Source of the DNA: a virus
DNA length: 20,696 bases
Reading direction: 5' to 3' (one strand)
UHGV virus genome: UHGV-0115176
Shown: piece after piece, positions 3,431 to 16,836 of the stretch
How positions within the stretch are numbered: position 1 is the first letter of the stretch
How the letters are laid out: the number at the start of each line of letters is the position of its first letter
The notes under the pieces: generated by a model
What the model was told of the DNA's origin: nothing
Databases searched by the model: none
What the model saw: the letters and a program-made list of their open reading frames with translations, nothing else
Program-made: the position numbers and the translations under genes

Positions 3431-3478
3431 AAATAAAAAAAGCCACCGTTGCAACTTAAGAGTCACTAACGGCAGCTT
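3431..3478 (-). terminator. Candidate intrinsic terminator immediately 3' of HNH endonuclease gene 1
   Basis: Minus-strand RNA stem GCUGCCGUU / AACGGUGGC (9 bp including 2 G-U) with a 17-nt loop, followed by U7AUUU (plus-strand A-run 3431-3441). The long loop lowers confidence. Confidence 0.35.
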
Positions 3479-3484
3479 ACATCT

Positions 3485-3997
3485 TTAAACGGTATGATAT
3501 TTCATTCTGGCTGCCTCAAAAGCCGCAGCGGCAAGTTCGGCAGTGTCATGGTATCCAAGGTTAATACACTTTCCAGACGCATTAATTCTTGCTCTCCATT
3601 TCCCGTACTTAGCATCCCAAGACACGCCACGGTATCCAGATTTATTATTCTTCTGAATTTTCCTGTTTTGCATATTTTCGGAATGAGTGACAAGACGAAG
3701 ATTTGATATCCGGTTATCTGTTCTTACCCTGTTGATGTGATCAATAAAACCATCGGGCATGGTGCCATAAACAATCAACCATGCCAGTCTGTGAGCAGGG
3801 CATGCTTTACCATTAATCATAATCATTAAATACCCATCAGAATTTATTGATGAGCATTTCTTGAAAGCAAAACGAGAGTTCCATGTCAAAGTGGTCCTCT
3901 CTCTCCCCTGCCTCCATCTCCAGTGAAAGTCGCCTGATGATGGATTGTAATCAACAACAGAAAGCACCATTTCTGGCGTTAATTTTATTTCTTTCAT
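3485..3997 (-). CDS. HNH homing endonuclease with C-terminal AP2-type DNA-binding domain (copy 1)
   Basis: 170 aa; motif GFIDHINRVRTDNRISNLRLVTHSENMQN (HNH) then YRGVSWDAKYGKWRARI...GYHDTAELAAAAFEAA (AP2-like). ATG at 3995-3997 with AAGGT SD. Confidence 0.85.
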   Translation of the reverse strand: MKEIKLTPEMVLSVVDYNPSSGDFHWRWRQGRERTTLTWNSRFAFKKCSSINSDGYLMIMINGKACPAHRLAWLIVYGTMPDGFIDHINRVRTDNRISNLRLVTHSENMQNRKIQKNNKSGYRGVSWDAKYGKWRARINASGKCINLGYHDTAELAAAAFEAARMKYHTV

Positions 3998-4115: not shown

Positions 4116-4144
4116 ATGCAAAAAAGCCCACAGGAGGTGGGCTT
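4116..4144 (-). terminator. tR'-like intrinsic terminator downstream of Q
   Basis: Minus-strand RNA AAGCCCAC-CUCCU-GUGGGCUU (perfect 8-bp stem) followed by UUUUUUGC; about 50 nt after the Q stop codon (4192-4194). Confidence 0.6.
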
Positions 4145-4184
4145 GTGATGGTTGCTGAATGCAAAAGCAGCAGCATATGTGAAT

Positions 4185-4214
4185 ATTATGGCTAAATGGC
4201 TAATTGCATGTCAA
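4185..4214 (-). promoter_or_regulatory. Candidate late promoter pR' (-35 TTGACA, -10 CATAAT) overlapping the 3' end of Q
   Basis: Minus-strand TTGACA (plus 4209-4214), 18-nt spacer, CATAAT (plus 4185-4190) directly after the Q stop; the predicted start would give a short (~60 nt) terminated leader ending at the tR'-like hairpin, analogous to lambda 6S RNA. Confidence 0.4.
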
Positions 4215-4710
4215 GACTTTTAACAGCAACATGCTTAACTTTCTCAACACGTTTACGCATTTTGAAAGCATTTTGCATTGGTTGGTACAAAACAAATAAC
4301 GACGCTTTCAGGATGTCGTCAATTTCGTTTCTACAGGTTGCCATTGAAGGTTTTCTCCATCCCTCGCCACCACGTCCACACATCTTGCGTGGCTTTGCAG
4401 TCGCGTGATAGTAGGATGCAATTGCTCGCTTAGATGAACCATGAGCGTAGTAGCTGAGGAGGATGCCAAAGGCTTTCTTGTCAATGTACATGACGGAATC
4501 GACGACCTGAGAAATCAACATTCCATCATCATCATTACACATTGGCCTTGTCATAACTCTTCCCGGCTCTACGCTCTCCATGAACTTCGCTATTACGCTG
4601 CTCATGCGCTTTTCCAGACGACCTGAATAAACCCATGCGCCCCACAGTTCAAGCCAGCCATTCAGCCACTCATGCTGTTCTTTGGTGAGGTTTAGTTCTC
4701 TTATGCCCAC
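4192..4710 (-). CDS. Late-gene antiterminator Q (QuuD-type family)
   Basis: 172 aa; LELWGAW... and [14 protein letters not shown] motifs resemble Q-family antiterminators of E. coli prophages; sits between ninI and the lysis cassette. The start at 4708-4710 is GTG, overlapping the ninI stop. Confidence 0.75.
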
Positions 4711-6143: not shown

Positions 6144-6322
6144 CTTGTTTTCCTCGCACGTTCTCTAAGCCACCGGATATCCCACAGGTGAGCCGTGTAG
6201 TTGAAGGTTTTTACGTCAGATTCTTTTGGGATTGGCTTGGGTTTATTTCTGGAGCGTTTCGTTGGAAGGTATTTGCAGTTTTCGCAGATTATGTCGGTGA
6301 AACTTCGTCGCTGTCGTCTCAT
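6140..6322 (-). CDS. ninE: NinE
   Basis: 60 aa from the internal ATG at 6320-6322: [60 protein letters not shown], near-identical to lambda NinE; the ORF-track ORF 6140..6382 carries an upstream extension. Confidence 0.85.
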
Positions 6323-6759: not shown

Positions 6760-6922
6760 CACCCTTAATCCTCTCGAAGTTCTTCTCGAAGTTTTTGGTG
6801 TCGAACACTGACCACCGACCATTATGAATGGCGTATGCACAGGTCTTGTTTTCGTCCTGATAAACTACCCTTACCTTGCGATAAAACCGTGGCTTAATCT
6901 CTCTGAATATTTGCTCGCTCAT
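6740..6922 (-). CDS. Hypothetical small protein (60 aa)
   Basis: ATG at 6920-6922 preceded by GAAGGAG SD; MSEQIFREIKPRFYRKVRVVYQDENKTCAYAIHNGRWSVF...; overlaps the ninB start by 20 nt in another frame. Confidence 0.6.
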   Translation of the reverse strand: MSEQIFREIKPRFYRKVRVVYQDENKTCAYAIHNGRWSVFDTKNFEKNFERIKGDEETNI

Positions 6923-6932
6923 GCTCACTCCT

Positions 6933-7148
6933 TCACTTTAAATCCAGACTCCGGATTATTCTGTTGCGCTGAAACTCATTGTTGAGTCTGAACAACCGCC
7001 GAAGAACACGGTCACGCGGATAGCGTCGTGCGGCAGGTGAATGCTCATACAACTCATCAAGCGGCAAACTGGACGATGAACGATACCGATACCAACGCGC
7101 CAACTCTTCACGAAAATTAGCCCTGACAAGCTCAGCTATCGTACTCAT
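6933..7148 (-). CDS. Hypothetical Arg-rich small protein (71 aa)
   Basis: ATG at 7146-7148 with TGGAGGA SD 8-9 nt upstream; no family recognised. Confidence 0.6.
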   Translation of the reverse strand: MSTIAELVRANFREELARWYRYRSSSSLPLDELYEHSPAARRYPRDRVLRRLFRLNNEFQRNRIIRSLDLK

Positions 7149-7171
7149 TTCTTAAATCCTCCAATTACTCT

Positions 7172-7210
7172 CCCCCAAATAAAAAGGCCTGCGATTACCA
7201 GCAGGCCTTT
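7172..7210. terminator. Strong hairpin / candidate bidirectional intrinsic terminator overlapping the stop of HNH gene 2
   Basis: Perfect 10-bp inverted repeat AAAGGCCTGC (7183-7192) / GCAGGCCTTT (7201-7210) with an 8-nt loop; U-rich tracts follow on both strands (minus UUUUAUUUG; plus AUCUUUUUUU). Confidence 0.6.
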
Positions 7211-7820
7211 ATCTTTTTTTAACACGCTTTCGAGTCCTTTTAGATTTTTCCTTAAGATATTCCGCAAGTTTATCCTCATCATTATTAAATTGAGATAAAA
7301 GCTCATGCTCGCAATTAAGTGCTTTACTCGCATAAGTTCCATATAGTTTCTTTCTTGCTAGTGCTGCTATGAATGCTGCATCTTCTTTGCTATCGAAATA
7401 CCCTAACGATATTGTCTTATTTTTATAACCAACATAAGACTTCCACCTGCCAGTTGTCTTATCCCAAGACACTCCAATCGCACCGGATGTGTTTAACCTA
7501 TTCCCTACAATGTTTCTTGCATTCTGCTCCTCTGTTGCCAGTCTTAGATTTGAAATCCTATTGTCAAGTCTGTTCCCATTTACATGATCAATAAACTTAG
7601 GAGGCCATTTTTTGTATACATAGAACCAAGCAAGTCTATGCGCATAATACAAAACATTATTTATGCTAATGCATATATAACCACCACTAACACCTCCAGC
7701 AATACTACCTTTTACTCTTACTACTGAATTTGTTTTTAGCCATTTAAATATTCCTGTTTCTGAGTCATATGATAATGTTGACAGAAGCTCATCGTGATCA
7801 ATTAGTTTTTTTATTCGCAT
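7209..7820 (-). CDS. HNH homing endonuclease with AP2-type domain (copy 2, AT-rich)
   Basis: 203 aa; FIDHVNGNRLDNRISNLRLATEEQNARN (HNH) and GVSWDKTTGRWKSYVGYKNKTISLGYFDSKEDAAFIAA (AP2-like); paralogous to 3485..3997. Markedly AT-rich with no recognisable SD before the ATG at 7818-7820. Confidence 0.85.
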   Translation of the reverse strand: MRIKKLIDHDELLSTLSYDSETGIFKWLKTNSVVRVKGSIAGGVSGGYICISINNVLYYAHRLAWFYVYKKWPPKFIDHVNGNRLDNRISNLRLATEEQNARNIVGNRLNTSGAIGVSWDKTTGRWKSYVGYKNKTISLGYFDSKEDAAFIAALARKKLYGTYASKALNCEHELLSQFNNDEDKLAEYLKEKSKRTRKRVKKR

Positions 7821-7902
7821 AAAGAATATACTTAATAATATATACAGTAAGAACCATTAGTAACGATAACCCTGCTATCAGCTCAGTGATGTAGATGGCC
7901 AT

Positions 7903-9783
7903 TTAATACTCCGTCACGTTTTCCTGTCGCCACGCCTCGTCATATTCCGATTTCGGCATATTGGCGATGTAGCTATATGGCGATCCTGATTCAAGTTGCA
8001 GGAACTGGTGCGATTGCTCGTCAAGGAACAACGGGACACCACCTTCCCAACCTTCGCCGTTACGTTGTTTTTCAAGCATCAAAACAGATGCAGGAGACGC
8101 CAGTAGCTGTTCGTCCTTCTCTGACATCTTTTCACCACTCTGAACTCTCTGTAACGCTCTCTCGCGAGCCTTGTTACGCCAGATGATGAAAAGGTTGTCT
8201 GTCAGGTCTGTTATCGCTCCAGAGCCTTTTACGTCCATTTTCCCGGTTGGTTTTTCTTCGCTGTCTCCTTTTCGCGAGTGAGTAACGAGAATGACGTGGG
8301 AGTTTGTTTTGTTTTTGAAGTCGCAAATCGAGTCAACAAACGCCTTCTGCCCGTTATAGTCATCGTCGCCTATGCCACATTTCATCAGGCTGTCGATGAT
8401 GAATAACTGGATCCCGTATCGGCGGCGAGCGTAGTCGAATATTTCGATCAGCCTGTCGGCTTTCGCCGTTCCGGTCAGGCCAAACACCCAAAGTCTTTCG
8501 TCATAAAATTTAAATGCAGAGTCAATTTCCAGCACTGGCGGCATCTTGCAGCACGTCGCCTGACGGGTAAGGCGCTTAAGGAGAATACCAGGCTTCAGCT
8601 CAAGTGACGCGATGCACGTCTTCACACCCTGACGCATTGCCTCAAGTGCCATATGCCCGACAACCTCCGTTTTTCCGTGACCGTTCACCCCATTGACCAG
8701 CGTCAACTCTGCCTCACGGAACTGGAATTTATCTGCCAGAGATTCCCACGGTGGATTAAACAGATACTGCTGCTTGCCGTAGAAAGCGTTGATAGTGTCC
8801 TGGTAAAACTCTCGCGCGCTGTAGAGTTCTTCAGGATCGAAGTAGGATGCCGTGCCGATGTACTGCCAGATTTCATCCTCGGTAACACCGTTCATCAGGC
8901 ATTCGTTGATGTCTTTGTACGGCAGAGTAACAAGACGGCAACGATGTTCACCGAGTCGGCTTGCGATTTCCCTTGCGGCTTCACGACCAACATCATCAAC
9001 GTCCATCGAGATGAATATTTCCTCAAACCTGTCGAGGTTGTGATACTCAAACTCAATCCACTGTTGCTTAGCGCCTTTCCCGCCACCAAACGGCACGGAT
9101 AACGCCGAGATGCCGTATTGCGCATAGCTCATACAATCAATTTCGCCTTCGCAAAGCACAACCGCCCTCACGCCAGCGTCCAGAGCCTGCCATCCGAACA
9201 GGCAAGGTTCGCAATCACCTTCTGCCATAATGACTTTCTTCCCGTCCGGGCGCTCAGTGCTGATTCGCTTGACCTGCAACAACTCACCATCGCGTTTGTA
9301 CGGAATCACCAGAGCATCCAGTTCCCGCTCTCCATTCCACACCTTGCCGCTGACAACCTCGTAGCGCTTTACGATTTCTGGCGATATGCCACGCGATTGC
9401 AGGTACTCAAGATGGGATTCTGTTCTGGTAACGTAGCGGGCGATTTTCTTACGATCAGGTCTGGAGAATTTCTTCTCACGTCTGGCATCGAAATGGTGAT
9501 CGTCATCCTTGATACCGAGAAATGCTTTCGCTTCCTGCATAGCCTGATGCAGGTTAATTCCACGACATGCCATCCACAAATCAAGCATGTCACCGCCGTC
9601 TCCCTCAGCGAAATCAGCCCATTTTTTCTTGCCGCTAAGGTTGACCTTAAGGCTGTTTCCCTTGTCACCGTTGACGTTACCGGCAACCCACTCATGCCCC
9701 TCTTTCTTGCCGTTTGGCAACAGGTGTGGAGCCACCCTGTCAACCTGCGCCCAAAGCAGGTAGCTAAGTTCACTTGGAGTCAT
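7903..9783 (-). CDS. Bifunctional DNA primase / replicative helicase (TOPRIM + P-loop DnaB/gp4-like)
   Basis: 626 aa; TOPRIM-like acidic motif VVLCEGEIDCMSYAQYGI, Walker A GVNGHGKT, Walker B-like FIIDSLMKCGIGDDD; ATG at 9781-9783 with GAGGG SD. Confidence 0.8.
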   Translation of the reverse strand: MTPSELSYLLWAQVDRVAPHLLPNGKKEGHEWVAGNVNGDKGNSLKVNLSGKKKWADFAEGDGGDMLDLWMACRGINLHQAMQEAKAFLGIKDDDHHFDARREKKFSRPDRKKIARYVTRTESHLEYLQSRGISPEIVKRYEVVSGKVWNGERELDALVIPYKRDGELLQVKRISTERPDGKKVIMAEGDCEPCLFGWQALDAGVRAVVLCEGEIDCMSYAQYGISALSVPFGGGKGAKQQWIEFEYHNLDRFEEIFISMDVDDVGREAAREIASRLGEHRCRLVTLPYKDINECLMNGVTEDEIWQYIGTASYFDPEELYSAREFYQDTINAFYGKQQYLFNPPWESLADKFQFREAELTLVNGVNGHGKTEVVGHMALEAMRQGVKTCIASLELKPGILLKRLTRQATCCKMPPVLEIDSAFKFYDERLWVFGLTGTAKADRLIEIFDYARRRYGIQLFIIDSLMKCGIGDDDYNGQKAFVDSICDFKNKTNSHVILVTHSRKGDSEEKPTGKMDVKGSGAITDLTDNLFIIWRNKARERALQRVQSGEKMSEKDEQLLASPASVLMLEKQRNGEGWEGGVPLFLDEQSHQFLQLESGSPYSYIANMPKSEYDEAWRQENVTEY

Positions 9784-9887
9784 GATTCCCTCAGATTGAG
9801 ATTTTTAAACCAGAAATCGACAAACGAAATACTTAACCAGCCGTGGTTATAACCAGCGACCAGTAACGATTTGATTTTTGATTTCAT
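9780..9887 (-). CDS. Possible small ORF (35 aa) bridging the initiator and primase-helicase genes
   Basis: Hand translation MKSKIKSLLVAGYNHGWLSISFVDFWFKNLNLRES; ATG at 9885-9887 lies 3 nt after the initiator stop, and its TGA overlaps the primase-helicase ATG. Below the ORF-track size cutoff. Confidence 0.3.
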   Translation of the reverse strand: MKSKIKSLLVAGYNHGWLSISFVDFWFKNLNLRES

Positions 9888-9890
9888 GGT

Positions 9891-10682
9891 TCACCTGTCG
9901 AAAAACACGTAGCCAGTTTTCGATACGGTGATTGCGGATGATGGTTTGGATTGTGGTTGAATAGTTTCTGGCTTCTCGTCGTTCCAGCGCTGACCGTTCA
10001 GGTAGCTCGATGGTAACAACCTGTCGAATCCGAACTGCTTACCATTCCTGCATGCGATGTCTTCTGCCAGCATCGTGGCAAACTCGCTTGCCGTACCCCT
10101 GGTAGTTTTACGCCATTCCCTGAACTGTGTTCTGAATGCTGAAGCTGCGTTTTTCTTCCCGGCTTTCCGCATGCCTGCACACCAGAATATTTCCTCGAAT
10201 GCCTTGTCGGTTTCTTCGTGACGGTCAGGAGTTTTTTCACACTCTGTTCGGACATGTTCGAACATAATGTTTTTAGGTTCATTGACTGGTTCAAAAGAGT
10301 GACTGGTTCTGGGTGAATCTCCTGCACTACCCCCTGGTGCAACTCCTGCACTACCTGGTGAATTTGCTGCACCAGATAGTGAATTATTTGCACTACCCCC
10401 TAGTGAATCTCCTGCACCATCCAGATGAAGGAGATAGATATTACTTGAGTTACCTTTTTCACCTTTCCGGGTGACTTTTTTTACCAGCCCGGACTCACAA
10501 AGGGCCGCAATATGATTCATCACAGAACGTTTGCTAATCTCGCACTGGTCAGCAATATGCTGGTAGCTGGGCCAGCACTCACCCTGATCGCTGGCATTAT
10601 CAGCCAGCTTGATCAGAACCAGTTTTCGCAATGGATTACCCACTCGAATTTTCATCGCTTTAACCATCAGCTCCATACTCAT
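9891..10682 (-). CDS. Replication initiator (HTH DNA-binding, lambda O-like role) containing an internal iteron array
   Basis: 263 aa; N-terminal winged-helix/HTH-like region (KIRVGNPLRKLVLIKLADNASDQGECWPSYQHIADQCEISKRSVMNHIAALCESGLVKKV), then a Gly/Ser/Ala low-complexity linker encoded by the direct repeats, then a C-terminal domain; the ATG overlaps the upstream stop. Confidence 0.7.
   Translation of the reverse strand: MSMELMVKAMKIRVGNPLRKLVLIKLADNASDQGECWPSYQHIADQCEISKRSVMNHIAALCESGLVKKVTRKGEKGNSSNIYLLHLDGAGDSLGGSANNSLSGAANSPGSAGVAPGGSAGDSPRTSHSFEPVNEPKNIMFEHVRTECEKTPDRHEETDKAFEEIFWCAGMRKAGKKNAASAFRTQFREWRKTTRGTASEFATMLAEDIACRNGKQFGFDRLLPSSYLNGQRWNDEKPETIQPQSKPSSAITVSKTGYVFFDR
10312..10422. 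repeat. Five imperfect 21-24 bp direct repeats (iterons), candidate replication origin inside the initiator gene
   Basis: Plus-strand units start near 10312, 10336, 10357, 10379 and 10403 with core GTGAAT(C/T)T(C/G)CTGCAC(T/C)A(C)C; flanked at 10427-10470 by a more AT-rich stretch. Confidence 0.6.
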
Positions 10683-10903
10683 GCTGCACCTCCGAGATGC
10701 TTCATGTTTTTTCCGGAGCGAAAGGCTATAAGCGGCATACTGACGCGGTAATTACGGCCCAGCGGTTCACAAACCACCTTCTGACATTCACGGTCAACCA
10801 GGCTAACACGTAGAACATGCCCTGCAGGCGTGGTGTACCACTGACCCGGACGAGGACAACGGAAAGTATGATTGGTAAACCGTTTGAAAATATTCCGGAT
10901 CAT
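10679..10903 (-). CDS. Hypothetical small protein (74 aa) with three Cys (possible zinc-ribbon-like)
   Basis: ORF-track ORF; 4-nt overlaps with both neighbours (ends 10900/10903 and 10679/10682) imply a translationally coupled operon member. Confidence 0.55.
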   Translation of the reverse strand: MIRNIFKRFTNHTFRCPRPGQWYTTPAGHVLRVSLVDRECQKVVCEPLGRNYRVSMPLIAFRSGKNMKHLGGAA

Positions 10904-12060
10904 TTGCGCCCCCTTACCTCTGAAGGGTTCAGCGACAAATTTATGAGACTGGCCAGTAGCGCCGCGTCGTTGATGCGGTCATACAGACTTACAGCCAGCG
11001 GGGATTCGGCTTTTGCCAACATGGGATAAAGCTGCTGCAGCCAGACCTTGTGGATTACCGACAGGTGGGAGTAAAGCACGCTGGCGTTATCTGCGGCATC
11101 GCTCAGCGTGGATGGCTTTGAAAGCAGTTTTTCCATCTGGTTAAAGGCATTTATGTATGCCTCTTTGAACCGGGCAGCACGTTTACCCGTGAAACCCATA
11201 GCAAGAAACGCAAAACCGTCTCGTGTGATTTGATAGCAAGGGAGCTTGCGTGTACCACCGTTCGGTTGATTTACCGAAATCGATGTCTCCGCAAAATTGC
11301 GGGCACAAAACTCTGGGGAACAATCCAGAGTGCGGATCTTTTTCAGCACATCGTCGTGACGCTTGGAGAAGAAGTTGGCAACAGCCAAAGAAGTGGTAAC
11401 GGCCTGGCCGTTGTCAATGGTGATTTCAGGTTGAGTGAGGGCTGGGATCGTAGCCATGATGGCAGCCTCCGTTGACAGTGAAAAACTTCCACCACCGGAA
11501 ACGCCAATTTCACTGGTGGTGAACTGGACGGGGTTGGCGTAACCGGCGTCAACGGAGACCGGCGCACCTTTCGGTGCCCCCGCCCAGCCCACCATAATCT
11601 GGATGTGAGCAAATGCGGACGATAAAAAAGACGCTGGCGCGTCATACATCGCCGTTGACAATTTCAGGACGCCAATCCCGGCACCCGCTTTATAAGGTGC
11701 CTGAGCAGTGTAACGTCCCGGAATTGCAGAATCAATATGCTGGTGGTCCTTCACACTCAACAAAATCACGCCTGAATTTCCACAAAGGACTAAAGCACTC
11801 ATGCGGGTAGTCTTTGCGAAGATAGATAACGCGCTGTGTTTCTGGCTCCCAACGAATAACATGGACATAAAGCCCTCTTCCGTCACGAAACCAGCGGTTA
11901 AGTTCCTGCACAACTCGCCCCCCACAGTCAGGTAAAGTTCTCTGTGGTTACTTACAGCCAGGTGATTTGGTAATCTGCATTCATGCCGTAACAACAGGTG
12001 TTCAGCGACGCTGACCACCAGCTGTTGCGACAAACGGTTATTTGCCGTTAAACTATTCAT
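10900..12060 (-). CDS. Rha-family phage regulatory protein, long ORF with a ~200-codon N-terminal extension (canonical Rha start at 11457)
   Basis: The segment from the internal ATG at 11455-11457 (GGAGG SD 8 nt upstream) reads MATIPALTQPEITIDNGQAVTTSLAVANFFSKRHDDVLKKIRTLD...ITRDGFAFLAMGFTGKRAARFKEAYINAFN, a Rha-type N-terminus. The same frame stays open for 201 further codons upstream to an ATG at 12058-12060 that overlaps the preceding gene's stop. Confidence 0.55.
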   Translation of the reverse strand: MNSLTANNRLSQQLVVSVAEHLLLRHECRLPNHLAVSNHRELYLTVGGELCRNLTAGFVTEEGFMSMLFVGSQKHSALSIFAKTTRMSALVLCGNSGVILLSVKDHQHIDSAIPGRYTAQAPYKAGAGIGVLKLSTAMYDAPASFLSSAFAHIQIMVGWAGAPKGAPVSVDAGYANPVQFTTSEIGVSGGGSFSLSTEAAIMATIPALTQPEITIDNGQAVTTSLAVANFFSKRHDDVLKKIRTLDCSPEFCARNFAETSISVNQPNGGTRKLPCYQITRDGFAFLAMGFTGKRAARFKEAYINAFNQMEKLLSKPSTLSDAADNASVLYSHLSVIHKVWLQQLYPMLAKAESPLAVSLYDRINDAALLASLINLSLNPSEVRGRK

Positions 12061-12626
12061 GCGTTAGTTTCTCCACAACCAGAAGCAATCGACGCCACGA
12101 CGCCCGGAGCTGCACACTCGCGGGCGTCACTCTTTTCTGGAGCGCAAAAGATTTTGTAGACCAGTGCTGCATGCTCCTGGAGCTTCGAAATTGACAGATA
12201 CAACTCATCATTAATTGCTGTCTGCTCGTGTGGCTCCACTACCCCATCTTCGATTGCCGAACGAATCTGCTTTGAGTAACTCCCGATCTGTTCGATGACT
12301 TCCAGCAGGCGCTGGTTTATATCGGCATTCTCTACTTCCTCAATTTCAGGAAGCGATACAAACACCCCACCAGCAGACTGTGCGACAGCATCCGCAATGT
12401 AGTGAGTGCCAGCCGCGCGCTGTAAAATCATTGCCCATCCCAGCGGGAAAATCTGATCGCCATCTGCACGAAGGCGGTTGAATAAAGCGTTCTCTGTTAC
12501 ATCCAGCCACTCAGCAGCTTCAGCGTAACCCCCCGGCAACGCCGCGATAGTTTTTCTGACAGCTTTCACGTACCACTCAGGCTGTTTTTCTACTTTCCAG
12601 TGATGCTTACCCACGGTTAGCCTCAT
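12057..12626 (-). CDS. CII/YdaT-like early regulatory protein (family assignment tentative)
   Basis: 189 aa; second gene of the rightward early operon, directly after cro, the position of cII/ydaT-type genes in lambdoid and Rac-like prophages; family from memory only. Confidence 0.6.
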   Translation of the reverse strand: MRLTVGKHHWKVEKQPEWYVKAVRKTIAALPGGYAEAAEWLDVTENALFNRLRADGDQIFPLGWAMILQRAAGTHYIADAVAQSAGGVFVSLPEIEEVENADINQRLLEVIEQIGSYSKQIRSAIEDGVVEPHEQTAINDELYLSISKLQEHAALVYKIFCAPEKSDARECAAPGVVASIASGCGETNA

Positions 12627-12657
12627 CGTTCTGTGGTTAAAAATTGAAGGTGTTCTG

Positions 12658-12858
12658 TTAATCTTTCGGATAGATATCCGGTCTTAAGTCAGATTTCGTA
12701 ATTGCACCTGACGTGCATTGCTCAAGTTTTTTAGCCAGCACAAAACTGGCTTTTTTATAACCATTGAAAACCAGCCGTAAGTAGCCTGGTGTTGAGCCAA
12801 CTTTTCCGGCCAACTCGCCCTGCTGTTCTTTGGTTAAAGAGTCCCAATACGCTTTCAT
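12658..12858 (-). CDS. Cro/YdaS-like HTH repressor
   Basis: 66 aa from the ATG at 12856-12858 (MKAYWDSLTKEQQGELAGKVGSTPGYLRLVFNGYKKASFVLAKKLEQCTSGAITKSDLRPDIYPKD), with GGAGG SD 7 nt upstream; divergent from the cI-like gene. The longer ORF-track ORF to 13161 would run through the operator region and the cI start. Confidence 0.75.
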   Translation of the reverse strand: MKAYWDSLTKEQQGELAGKVGSTPGYLRLVFNGYKKASFVLAKKLEQCTSGAITKSDLRPDIYPKD

Positions 12859-12861
12859 ACA

Positions 12862-12884
12862 ATATGTACCTCCGATATACATAT
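12862..12884. promoter_or_regulatory. Candidate operator OR-a (ATATGTACC-N5-GATATACATAT dyad)
   Basis: Inverted arms ATATGTA (12862-12868) / TACATAT (12878-12884) overlapping the pR -10 and the cro SD; a further TACAT copy at 12885-12889. Confidence 0.5.
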
Positions 12885-12913
12885 TACATGATTGAGATGA
12901 ACCTTCAAGATAC

Positions 12914-12932
12914 TTGTACCCTATCGGTACAA
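12914..12932. promoter_or_regulatory. Candidate operator OR-b (TTGTACC-N5-GGTACAA perfect dyad)
   Basis: Perfect 7-bp inverted repeat around a 5-bp spacer, overlapping the candidate pRM -35 and lying just upstream of the pR -35. Confidence 0.45.
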
Positions 12933-12948
12933 AGGTTTTAATTTCGTT

Positions 12949-13623
12949 ATGAAAACAGTCCATGACATCCGGCGGTCTAACGCCAGAAAACTGAGAGATG
13001 GTGTTGGCGGGAATTCTTCCTTTGCCACCATGATTGATCGCGAGCCAACCCAGACCAGCAGGTTTATGGGAGATGGTGCTACTAAAAATATCGGTGACAG
13101 CATGGCACGGCACATCGAAAAATGTTTCGACCTGCCTGTCGGATGGCTTGATCAAGAACACCAGACAACAAACATCACAAAAAAACCTGATGTTTCAATT
13201 ACTAACAAACAAATAACGTTAGTCCCTGTCATATCATGGGTACAGGCCGGAGCATGGAAAGAAGTTGGCTATTCTGAGGTTGATTTGAGCACAGCAGAAA
13301 CTTATCCCTGCCCTGTACCCTGTGGCGAAATGACTTATATCTTGCGGGTGATTGGTGATTCAATGATTGATGAGTACCGCCCGGGAGACATGATTTTTGT
13401 AGATCCTGAAGTCCCTGCCTGCCACGGTGACGACGTTATTGCATTGATGCACGATACGGGCGAAACCACCTTTAAGCGGTTGATAGAAGATGGAACACAG
13501 CGTTACCTCAAAGCATTAAACCCAAACTGGCCTGAACCTTACATTAAGATCAACGGTAATTGCTCTATAATTGGTACAGTAATTTTCTCAGGAAAACCAA
13601 GAAGATACAAAATAAAGGCCTAA
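12949..13623 (+). CDS. CI-like prophage repressor (N-terminal HTH, C-terminal S24 LexA-type autopeptidase)
   Basis: 224 aa; HTH-like N-terminus (ARKLRDGVGGNSSFATMIDREPTQTSRFMGDGATKNIGDSMARHIEKCF); C-terminal S24 signature with Ser in VIGDSM and Lys in TTFKRL; divergent from cro. Confidence 0.85.
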   Translation: MKTVHDIRRSNARKLRDGVGGNSSFATMIDREPTQTSRFMGDGATKNIGDSMARHIEKCFDLPVGWLDQEHQTTNITKKPDVSITNKQITLVPVISWVQAGAWKEVGYSEVDLSTAETYPCPVPCGEMTYILRVIGDSMIDEYRPGDMIFVDPEVPACHGDDVIALMHDTGETTFKRLIEDGTQRYLKALNPNWPEPYIKINGNCSIIGTVIFSGKPRRYKIKA

Positions 13624-13634
13624 TCAATATTTAT

Positions 13635-13658
13635 AACCTGCTTCGGCAGGTTTTTTTA
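13635..13658 (+). terminator. Intrinsic terminator after the repressor gene
   Basis: AACCTGC-TTCG-GCAGGTT (7-bp stem, tetraloop) followed by T7 (13651-13657), 12 nt after the cI stop. Confidence 0.75.
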
Positions 13659-13661
13659 TAC

Positions 13662-13694
13662 TTGACAATGTACCCTTGAGATACATAATGTATC
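13662..13694 (+). promoter_or_regulatory. pL-like promoter (TTGACA-N16-CATAAT) with overlapping operator dyads
   Basis: Consensus -35 TTGACA (13662-13667) and -10 CATAAT (13684-13689); dyad ATGTA (13668-13672) / TACAT (13682-13686) and perfect palindrome GATACATAATGTATC (13680-13694); the 23-mer 13666-13688 matches OR-a at 16 of 23 positions. Confidence 0.6.
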
Positions 13695-14181
13695 TAAAAG
13701 AAACATGCCACAGGCAAGATTAAACAAAATTTGGTTGTAACACGGCGTATGGCACATGCGTCGTTAGCGGTCTGGGGACGTTAAAGGGGACAATCCACTC
13801 CTTGCTCGGGCAAACAAACCAGGTAGCCGGAATGTGCAAGTCAATGATGATGCTGATAAGACGCCTAACCAGCGTGGCGATTCGGTTTGACGCCTGGGAA
13901 GAGACCAGGACGCAACGATGAGAGCATTGACGAGCAAGGCATAAGTGCTGGTTCAATTCCAGACAGTCCCATTCAGATGGGAGGGTTGGGCAGGGAAAAG
14001 GTCCGTTCGATTCGGACACCGGCAATGCTCTCAGCGTTGTGGTGAATGCGCAGGCTGATGCGCGAAAGACATTGCAGCTATTGCGGAAAAGAGCTGTTCG
14101 GCGGGGCAATCAAACGCCCGTGAGAGTCTGAAATAACCGCAAGCCGGAGATCAGCACCGGCACCACAACAGCCACTGCTTT

Positions 14182-14228
14182 GGCGGTACCAGTTTGTACA
14201 CTTGCTTCCGGCTGGTACCGCTCTTTTT
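14182..14228 (+). terminator. Strong intrinsic terminator inside the pL leader, ~140 nt before the first early-left gene
   Basis: Stem GGCGGTACCAG (14182-14192) / CTGGTACCGCT (14212-14222), 10-11 bp and GC-rich, followed by CTTTTT (14223-14228); the 19-nt loop contains TTGTACA. Confidence 0.6.
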
Positions 14229-14365
14229 ACAAAACAGAGAAGAGCATCACCGGACGACGGGCTCATAACCCAATCCATCCGGGCGGCTGTCACCGCAGGT
14301 GTTCTTCTCTGTTTTGTGGAGAAACCAACCGACCTTGCAGGGTCGGTATGATGAGGAGCAGCAAA

Positions 14366-16283: not shown

Positions 16284-16636
16284 ATGTTTTCGAAATGGAA
16301 GGGTTTCTTCGCGGGAAATGTGTACCACGAGATCTGAAAGTGAATGAAACAAATGCTGAGTACCTGGTACGTAAATTCGATGCGCTTGAAGCTAAATGTG
16401 CGGCACTGGAAAACAAAATAATACCAGTGTCAGCTGAACTGCCGCCAGCAAATGAAAGTGTTCTGTTATTTGATGCTAACGGAGAAGGCTGGCTAATTGG
16501 CTGGCGTTCTCTCTGGTACACCTGGGGACAAAAAGAAACCGGAGAATGGCTGTGGACATTTCAGGTCGGGGACCTTGAAAACGTCAATATCACTCACTGG
16601 GCAGTAATGCCGAAAGCACCGAAGAATAAAAAATGA
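16274..16636 (+). CDS. yfdS: YfdS-like DUF551 protein
   Basis: 120 aa, MRMNVFEMEGFLRGKCVPRDLKVNETNAEYLVRKFDALEAK...ITHWAVMPKAPKNKK; overlaps the yfdR end by 10 nt. Confidence 0.7.
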   Translation: MRMNVFEMEGFLRGKCVPRDLKVNETNAEYLVRKFDALEAKCAALENKIIPVSAELPPANESVLLFDANGEGWLIGWRSLWYTWGQKETGEWLWTFQVGDLENVNITHWAVMPKAPKNKK

Positions 16637-16836
16637 GCGTGATAAAAACTCATACAGGAATTGTTATCACCCGAGACGGTCCGCAGGTAAAAAAACTGCA
16701 CCAGACAAAGCGGATGTGGGTCGTCGGAAAAAACGAGTTTTACCACAAAGAAACCGGACGCCGCCACTTTGCAGAAAATACTCGCCGCCGACTGCTGATC
16801 GATACCATCAAGCCTATCGAGGTGAAGCATGTTTAA
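16633..16836 (+). CDS. Hypothetical basic small protein (67 aa)
   Basis: ATG at 16633 overlaps the yfdS stop (ATGA). Confidence 0.55.
   Translation: MSVIKTHTGIVITRDGPQVKKLHQTKRMWVVGKNEFYHKETGRRHFAENTRRRLLIDTIKPIEVKHV

Follow-up and report, generated by a model that had tools for sequence, protein, structure and literature searches.

How transcription initiated at the early promoter pR reaches the gene of the late antiterminator Q, if an intrinsic terminator lies on the way and N is seemingly missing, is the question raised by a lambdoid phage genome available as UHGV-0115176 (20,696 nt; this whole stretch of DNA is referred to as the window). The hairpin in question is situated at positions 7183–7210. 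A sequence-only reading of the same DNA regarded it as a strong terminator inside an early operon devoid of an N-like gene, and proposed that it is either leaky or overcome by antitermination encoded elsewhere. Below, the gene order around the hairpin, its identity, the origin of its surroundings and the possible routes of read-through are considered.

Gene Order in the Early Operon

All genes around the hairpin are located on the minus strand, i.e., the sense strand of the early pR operon. The immunity module belongs to the N-less e14/SfV/mEp460 type: the gene of a cI-like (LexA/S24) repressor (12949–13623, plus strand) is followed on the same strand by a terminator (13635–13652) and a pL-like promoter, TTGACA-16-CATAAT (13662–13689), and then by a non-coding leader of ~650 nt in place of the expected N gene. 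On the minus strand, the operon comprises a cro-like gene (~12861–12658), a CP76/YmfL “CII-like” gene (12626–12057), the isrK RNA (11700–11624) with its own terminator and the C4 RNA (11599–11512), both recognized by Rfam, the gene of the Rha antirepressor (between the C4 RNA and the O-like gene), the gene of an O/DnaD-like initiator (9891–10682), and that of a Toprim + DnaB-like primase-helicase of 626 aa (7903–9783). The latter gene, shared with the phage Sf101, is the last replication gene before the hairpin. Past the hairpin, a DUF7301 gene (6933–7148) is followed by the genes of NinB, NinE/F-like ORFs, NinG, and a phosphatase, in that order, then by the Q gene (4192–4710) and by a PR′-like promoter with a tR′-like terminator (4124–4214), all on the minus strand. 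The gene map agrees, accordingly, with the placement of an intrinsic terminator downstream of the replication genes and upstream of nin and Q. The other terminator that pR transcripts meet before Q is that of the isrK type (11624–11643, minus strand).

From the end of the stem to the ATG of the DUF7301 gene (7148), there are just 35 nt including the Shine–Dalgarno sequence GGAGG (7162–7158), hence no promoter fits in this interval. The promoter scan returned nothing above chance between the hairpin and Q (the window holds 23 promoter-like sites vs. 25.1 ± 5.7 in shuffled sequences). The expression of Q from pR needs read-through of the terminator, so both the lack of promoter room and the need for read-through stated by the sequence-only reading hold.

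The RNA genes of this operon deserve a remark of their own. Within 11512–11700, Rfam scores isrK at 62 bits and the C4 antisense RNA at 81 bits. A 386-aa ORF (10900–12060, minus strand; “transcriptional regulator” in PHROGs, with Rha at its C-terminus) stays open across isrK, C4, and the isrK terminator, and the Pfam Phage_ASH match in this ORF (residues 117–212) coincides with the isrK/C4 RNA genes; therefore, what this family describes may in part be RNA genes in translation.

Structure of the Hairpin and Its Identity with Lambda tR2

Both direct inspection and the terminator scan found the claimed perfect 10-bp stem, AAAGGCCTGC/GCAGGCCTTT, with six G–C pairs and an 8-nt loop, at 7183–7210. 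It ranks first among the terminator-like sites of the window on either strand (36 sites in total vs. 19.4 ± 4.2 in shuffled sequences), with a predicted energy of about −17 to −19 kcal/mol (z = −2.5 for the minus and −5.1 for the plus strand relative to shuffles). In the operon sense (minus strand), the stem reads AAAGGCCUGC/GCAGGCCUUU and encloses the loop UGGUAAUC, the inner 8 bp (7208–7201/7192–7185) forming its core; the U-tract UUUUUAUUU, counted from the 8-bp stem, occupies 7177–7185. The respective RNA is ...AAAAAAAGAUAA-AGGCCUGC-UGGUAAUC-GCAGGCCU-UUUUAUUU-GGGGGAGAG..., with the tail of the 10-bp hairpin being TTATTTGGGG (7182–7173). The plus-strand tail, ATCTTTTTTT (7211–7220), is the better T-run of the two strands and is antisense to the operon. 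The sequence-only reading mentioned neither this T-run, nor the minus-strand location of the operon, nor the homing-endonuclease gene ending at the stem.

A chance hairpin is excluded, because the surrounding block (7165–7212, minus strand) recurs with 96–100% identity in ~400 lambdoid phage records as the conserved ninA–tR2 linker. Judging from this conservation and from the alignments, the hairpin is the ortholog of phage lambda tR2, the Rho-independent terminator of this linker, and hence an already known element. Its 34-nt core comprising the stem, loop, and U-tract, AGGCCTGCTGGTAATCGCAGGCCTTTTTATTTGG, is identical to lambda tR2 at 34 of 34 positions and is 100% conserved in the window, Lambda, O276, Sf101, SfI, HK022, PA28, Stx2_16002, and two E. 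coli prophages; for the 10-bp hairpin, 27 of 28 positions coincide with lambda tR2. The Lambda match resides at 40591–40636, between ren and ninB, and the record of Lambdavirus O276 labels the same bases as “TR2 Rho-independent transcription terminator”. In a sensitive search, 406 phage records matched a query made of the HNH gene adjoining the hairpin (see below) and the hairpin itself. Only 19 of them contain most of the query; the remaining records, including Lambda, P22, 21, VT2-Sakai, and SfI, match only its first 44–48 nt (hairpin + tail), at 96–100%.

The window and lambda tR2 share the 8-bp stem, the loop, the U5AU3 tract, and the GG, as well as the position on the sense strand of the pR operon, 3′ of the last replication gene (or ren) and 5′ of the nin genes. 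Within the hairpin, the two differ solely by a single C-to-A substitution 5′ of the core stem (ACAGG to AAAGG). Owing to it, the first two U’s become paired and the stem grows from 8 to 10 bp, so two U’s are lost from the tract. Unlike in lambda, ninA of the window is interrupted by the HNH gene, which ends with its stop codon right at the stem, and the window phage lacks an N/nut system to override the terminator. As the element is the well-known tR2, its location represents the standard lambdoid layout, and the view of a terminator at this position as an oddity has to be abandoned. The release of RNA at lambda tR2 was mapped to U7/U8 of the U-tract (bioRxiv 10.64898/2026.05.29.728758), which would correspond to 7179/7178 in the window. 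The hairpin itself adds nothing new, lambda tR2 being among the most studied terminators; the novelty is limited to its presence in an N-less hybrid, a mildly curious context of modest value.

Insertion of the HNH Gene into ninA

The low-GC gene ending at the hairpin (7209–7820, minus strand) encodes a 203-aa putative free-standing homing endonuclease. Pfam recognizes in it an HNH_3 domain (8.1e-16) and an AP2 domain (1e-7; 32.6 bits, just below the cutoff of 33.3 bits), and the whole gene matches PHROG_99, HNH endonuclease (3e-72), so a nuclease and a DNA-binding domain, as required of a free-standing homing endonuclease, are both present. The GC content of this region is 0.30–0.38 vs. ~0.5 in the flanks. 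The TAA stop codon (7211–7209) directly abuts the 8-bp stem of tR2, i.e., the distance between them is 0.

The site is occupied by the HNH gene in the window, HK022, PA28, a prophage of E. coli AR_0017, and one more locus (L021); it is empty in Sf101, Lambda, and SfI. In Sf101, the same primase-helicase gene is directly followed by a small ninA ORF containing tR2 and then by ninB. The window shares with Sf101 the first ~24 nt of ninA (ATGnCCATCTACATCACTGAGCT), then diverges and rejoins it exactly at the tR2 stem, with the HNH gene sitting between ninA codon ~9 and the stem. The diverged 5′ remnant of ninA persists as a ninA-like ORF of 34 aa (7798–7902, minus strand), which begins with an ATG directly after the TAA of the primase-helicase gene and overlaps with its end the start of the HNH gene; the HNH start codon has no obvious Shine–Dalgarno sequence. 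An intact ninA ORF around tR2 is present neither in the window, where it is split by the HNH gene, nor in the HK022 allele.

The segment harboring the HNH gene and tR2 (7165/7168–7902, 735 bp) recurs with ≥98% identity in HK022, PA28, and Stx2_16002, its neighbors being different in each. By these alignments, the HNH-AP2 gene is inserted into the highly conserved ninA–tR2 sequence, as expected of a free-standing homing endonuclease. The terminator is older than the insertion, since ~390 of the 406 records carry its block without the HNH gene and the site is empty in Sf101. The tR2 linker thus represents both a conserved stretch where lambdoid modules are exchanged and a landing site of an HNH homing endonuclease. 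A close counterpart is the HK022 allele, situated downstream of gene P: it is 98.9% identical to 7165–7902 over 738 bp and features the same HNH gene (HK022_57), abutting stop codon, and 10-bp stem. Unlike the window, HK022 reads through terminators with the cis-acting put RNAs (putL and putR), and the gene after its terminator is different.

Two side observations concern the HNH genes. In the HNH-bearing allele, the 7-T run of the plus strand (7211–7220) corresponds to Lys codons at the C-terminus of the HNH protein, and the Lambda allele lacks such a run; therefore, antisense transcription could be stopped at this hairpin as well. A second HNH_3 + AP2 gene (3485–3997, minus strand), 40% identical to the tR2-side one, is located directly after the PR′-like promoter and tR′-like terminator and is followed by a hairpin with a T-run near 3445–3475; the two HNH genes therefore adjoin the two classical lambdoid terminators.

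Searches for an Antiterminator

Among the 20 predicted proteins of the window, comparison with Pfam and PHROGs revealed no antiterminator family other than Q, and the listing of small ORFs revealed no credible ORF after pL (13690–14347). The scan of all window ORFs for arginine-rich motifs (ARM) returned nothing in an N-like, pL-proximal position: the R-rich matches were confined to the NinE-like protein, the N-terminal extension of NinB, DUF7301, and out-of-frame ORFs. Sequences resembling the nut boxA (CGCTCTTA-like) occur in the window only at 2540 and 20264, i.e., at chance level, neither of them in a nut position. No element repeated in the pL and pR leaders was found beyond short Shine–Dalgarno-like strings.

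The put sites of the HK022 type (CGAACGGC...AGGAxGA...CAAT, a two-stem RNA) were sought in the window with BLAST, regular expressions, and nhmmer --max, using a profile built from the aligned HK022 putL/putR and their homologs from HK639, UPF_BP1, and phiEt88. A sequence HMM was used instead of a covariance model because the RNAalifold consensus structure was poor. This profile recovered all known sites in the positive controls HK022, HK639, UPF_BP1, and phiEt88 (E ≤ 1e-17); its best match in the window did not surpass E = 0.7, and no match was near pL or pR. Rfam, searched with gathering thresholds and, on the pL leader, with E-value thresholds, matched isrK and C4 alone, with none of its antiterminator families recognized. 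With the Pfam, PHROG, ORF, ARM, boxA, and put searches all negative, the sequence-only reading was right that the window has no N-like gene; the lack of an N-like function, nut, and put in it is supported as far as sequence methods reach. The antitermination encoded elsewhere, proposed by the same reading, is possible; this analysis found no support for it.

Two candidates suggested by other phages were rejected. SfI, taken for a second N-less phage with tR2, carries lambda’s own N and immunity region, and AntQ of Gifsy-1, considered as an early antiterminator beside isrK, is the Q protein of that phage, the isrK context being different there. As to N in phages of the Stx2c/2851 type, the published literature yielded nothing useful.

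Mosaic Origin of the Window

The two parts of the window have different relatives. The part 10276–20696 matches N-less lambdoids of the e14/SfV type (Stx2a_WGPS2, cdtI, Ayreon, mEp460, and Stx2c phages), and the part 367–10273 matches other phages. The halves fall in separate sets of E. coli genomes, with a shared overlap of ~80 bp (10276–10355) inside the O-like gene; the region 6900–13700 was not contiguous in any of the 5,426 complete E. coli genomes searched. Like the window, the phages of the e14/SfV/cdtI/mEp460/Stx2c type possess cI, cro, the CP76/YmfL-like gene, the isrK and C4 RNAs, the Rha gene, the pL promoter, and the long pL leader. Unlike the window, which has a tR2-bearing replication-to-Q segment instead, they lack tR2: it was absent from all five N-less relatives compared, namely Ayreon, WGPS2, mEp460, and two E. 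coli prophages whose immunity region is nearly identical. The pR operons of the N-less relatives are compact, and in the two scanned, those of Ayreon and WGPS2, isrK is the only clear sense-strand terminator.

Elsewhere, the toprim-(HNH)-tR2 module occurs together with N in Sf101, with put in HK022, and with an ARM protein in the prophage of E. coli AR_0017 (L020), in which the HNH-tR2-DUF7301 junction is identical to that of the window. Downstream of its pL region, this prophage encodes a 90-aa “hypothetical protein” (16494–16766 of that locus; MSRKTEFKGTSASRRRARRANLQ...), whose ARM, SASRRRARRANLQ, suggests that it is probably an unannotated N-type antiterminator. For comparison with the window, visual inspection of the translated ORF suffices to notice this ARM protein.

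Taken together, these matches show that the window is a hybrid, in which a tR2-bearing replication/nin module meets an N-less immunity/pL module near 10276, within the O-like gene; such mosaicism accounts for the lack of N in a tR2-bearing phage. The window originates from a metagenome contig (ENA ERZ651930, NODE_1849; 22,475 bp) with 4.5x coverage, and only two metagenome contigs are known to encode exactly this hybrid O-like protein, so the hybrid is clearly rare. The second contig, from another sample (ERZ507898), encodes the identical hybrid O-like protein with a 74-aa gene of the N-less side upstream and the primase-helicase downstream; the matching neighbors on both sides argue against a simple assembly chimera.

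Proposed Read-Through of tR2 without N

The efficiency of tR2 in vivo depends on translation. According to Li et al. (2016), it reaches ~0.9 at most, provided that the stop codon is >27–30 nt upstream of the stem; a stop codon only 5 nt away lowers it to <0.1, and the uncoupling of translation brings it back; the 5′ arm of the hairpin is covered by the ribosome terminating at this codon (PMC4824070). The designation of the hairpin as “strong” holds, accordingly, only in certain contexts; at this locus, the HNH stop codon is adjacent to the stem. The constructs of Li et al. (2016) resemble the window in that tR2 itself follows a translated ORF ending at the stem foot (at a distance of 0 from the 8-bp stem in the window) and differ in that a well-translated RFP gene is replaced here by an HNH gene without a clear Shine–Dalgarno sequence. 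The insertion of the latter places a stop codon exactly at the site from which, in the published experiments, translation turned tR2 off, and by this analogy the homing-endonuclease gene ending at the stem probably weakens the terminator.

In the mechanism we propose, tR2 would act on the minus-strand transcripts from pR: the GC-rich stem would form in the RNA exit channel while RNA polymerase (RNAP) sits on UUUUUAUUU, the transcript would be released at the two positions deduced from lambda, and the transcription of the nin genes and Q would be lowered. In the usual hosts of this module, RNAP modified via N/nut or put overrides tR2. In the window, two passive routes to Q most likely operate instead, namely the intrinsic leak of tR2 and the occlusion of the 5′ arm of the hairpin by the ribosome finishing the HNH gene, so tR2 would function as a partial attenuator. 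Overall, lambda tR2 in an N-less hybrid, passed by leak and ribosome occlusion, is in our opinion the probable explanation of this locus as a whole. It implies both that termination does occur at the hairpin, as its identity with tR2 suggests, and that the two passive routes together pass enough transcription to Q, as we infer from the published efficiencies. With no visible Shine–Dalgarno sequence and a start overlapping the ninA-like ORF, the HNH gene may be translated inefficiently, in which case the occlusion would be weak. Phages possessing N or put display the same arrangement of HNH and tR2, which is therefore no adaptation to N loss. Counting against passive read-through, N− mutants of lambda need nin deletions for growth, hence terminators of the tR2 type can represent a considerable obstacle, although tR1, tR3, and tR4 are present in lambda as well.

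Several other explanations have to be weighed against leak and occlusion. The early module of the e14/SfV/mEp460 type might encode an unrecognised processive antitermination rendering pR transcription resistant to tR2, either through an RNA element transcribed from pR or pL or through a protein such as the CP76/YmfL-like one. N-less lambdoids of this type do include plaque-formers, e.g., mEp460, whose collection was described as Nus-dependent coliphages (PMC11893012); put-like mechanisms have been openly speculated for N-less lambdoids (PMC12315714); the isrK-type terminator in their pR operons precedes even the replication genes and must be passed; and the pL leader of ~650 nt is non-coding and structured. 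Against this stand the failure to find put of the HK022 type in the window, the pL and pR leaders having in common only short Shine–Dalgarno-like strings, and the likeness of parts of the pL leader to tRNA-flanking spacers (P1, SPN9TCW), which points to decayed tRNA-array DNA. Moreover, the read-through of the isrK terminator was partial and passive in Gifsy-1 (PMC4825925) and, as the five N-less relatives are free of tR2, with Ayreon and WGPS2 having compact operons and isrK as the only clear sense terminator, such phages may not need early antitermination at all. We regard an antitermination of this kind as unlikely, and somewhat less likely still its specific form in which an RNA of the N-less module (the isrK/C4 region or the pL leader) or the CP76/YmfL-like protein makes RNAP terminator-resistant. 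About as unlikely as the former is that the arrangement is non-functional, being either a crippled recent recombinant with tR2 starving Q or an assembly chimera of two lambdoid prophages residing together and fused within the O-like gene that they share. This could be suspected from the origin of the window (a 22.5-kb metagenome contig at 4.5x), from the absence of a contiguous 6900–13700 in all 5,426 complete E. coli genomes, whose sets for the two halves are separate, and from the exact hybrid O-like protein being known from two contigs only. However, the independent sample ERZ507898 encodes the identical protein with matching neighbors, the gene set is intact from int through the lysis genes, and the junction lies between the N- and C-terminal halves of the O-like initiator, where lambdoid phages classically recombine.

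A promoter downstream of the hairpin driving the nin genes and Q would make read-through unneeded. Weak minus-strand matches at 6317–6288 and 4554–4525 (9/12 positions) are at hand for this role, but the promoter matches of the window as a whole are at chance level with none between the hairpin and the DUF7301 start, and lambdoid nin regions are classically transcribed from pR, so such a promoter seems very improbable. Finally, the hairpin might be a private (“moron”) terminator that arrived with the low-GC HNH cassette, as would fit the transfer of 7165/7168–7902 as one block (at least 98% identity) between HK022, PA28, and Stx2_16002, as well as the 10-bp stem and antisense T-run of the HNH-bearing allele. 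We rejected this idea, which is refuted by the 48-nt hairpin block standing alone in ~390 of the 406 phage records, Lambda among them, and by the empty site of Sf101 after the same upstream gene; what credence it retains is negligible.

With leak and occlusion as the preferred reading, the window offers a natural case of an N-class terminator in an operon without N. If the hybrid phage is viable, it provides a simple test between an antitermination of their own in N-less lambdoids and the tolerance of ~90% termination before Q. Should antitermination by the N-less module turn out to be true, the hybrid would show the override of a foreign N-class terminator, lambda tR2.

Composition of the pL Leader

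The leader between the pL-like promoter and the yfdP-like gene (13690–14347, plus strand; ~650 nt, no credible ORF) is unusually structured (MFE −252 kcal/mol, z = −6.4) and matches no Rfam family. Its long-range helices pair 13913–13932 with 14020–14039 and 14229–14253 with 14293–14317, and hairpins resembling T-arms are present, with no tRNA detected by ARAGORN. The leader is a patchwork of modules present elsewhere: the segment 13729–13906 is 79–88% identical to the tRNA(CAU)-ban spacer of P1-like phages, the segment 13819–14042 is 88% identical to the DNA just upstream of tRNA-Arg in the Salmonella phage SPN9TCW, and the segment 14022–14069 is present in many Klebsiella phages. Thus, the leader could represent either decayed spacers of a tRNA array or an unnamed leader RNA.
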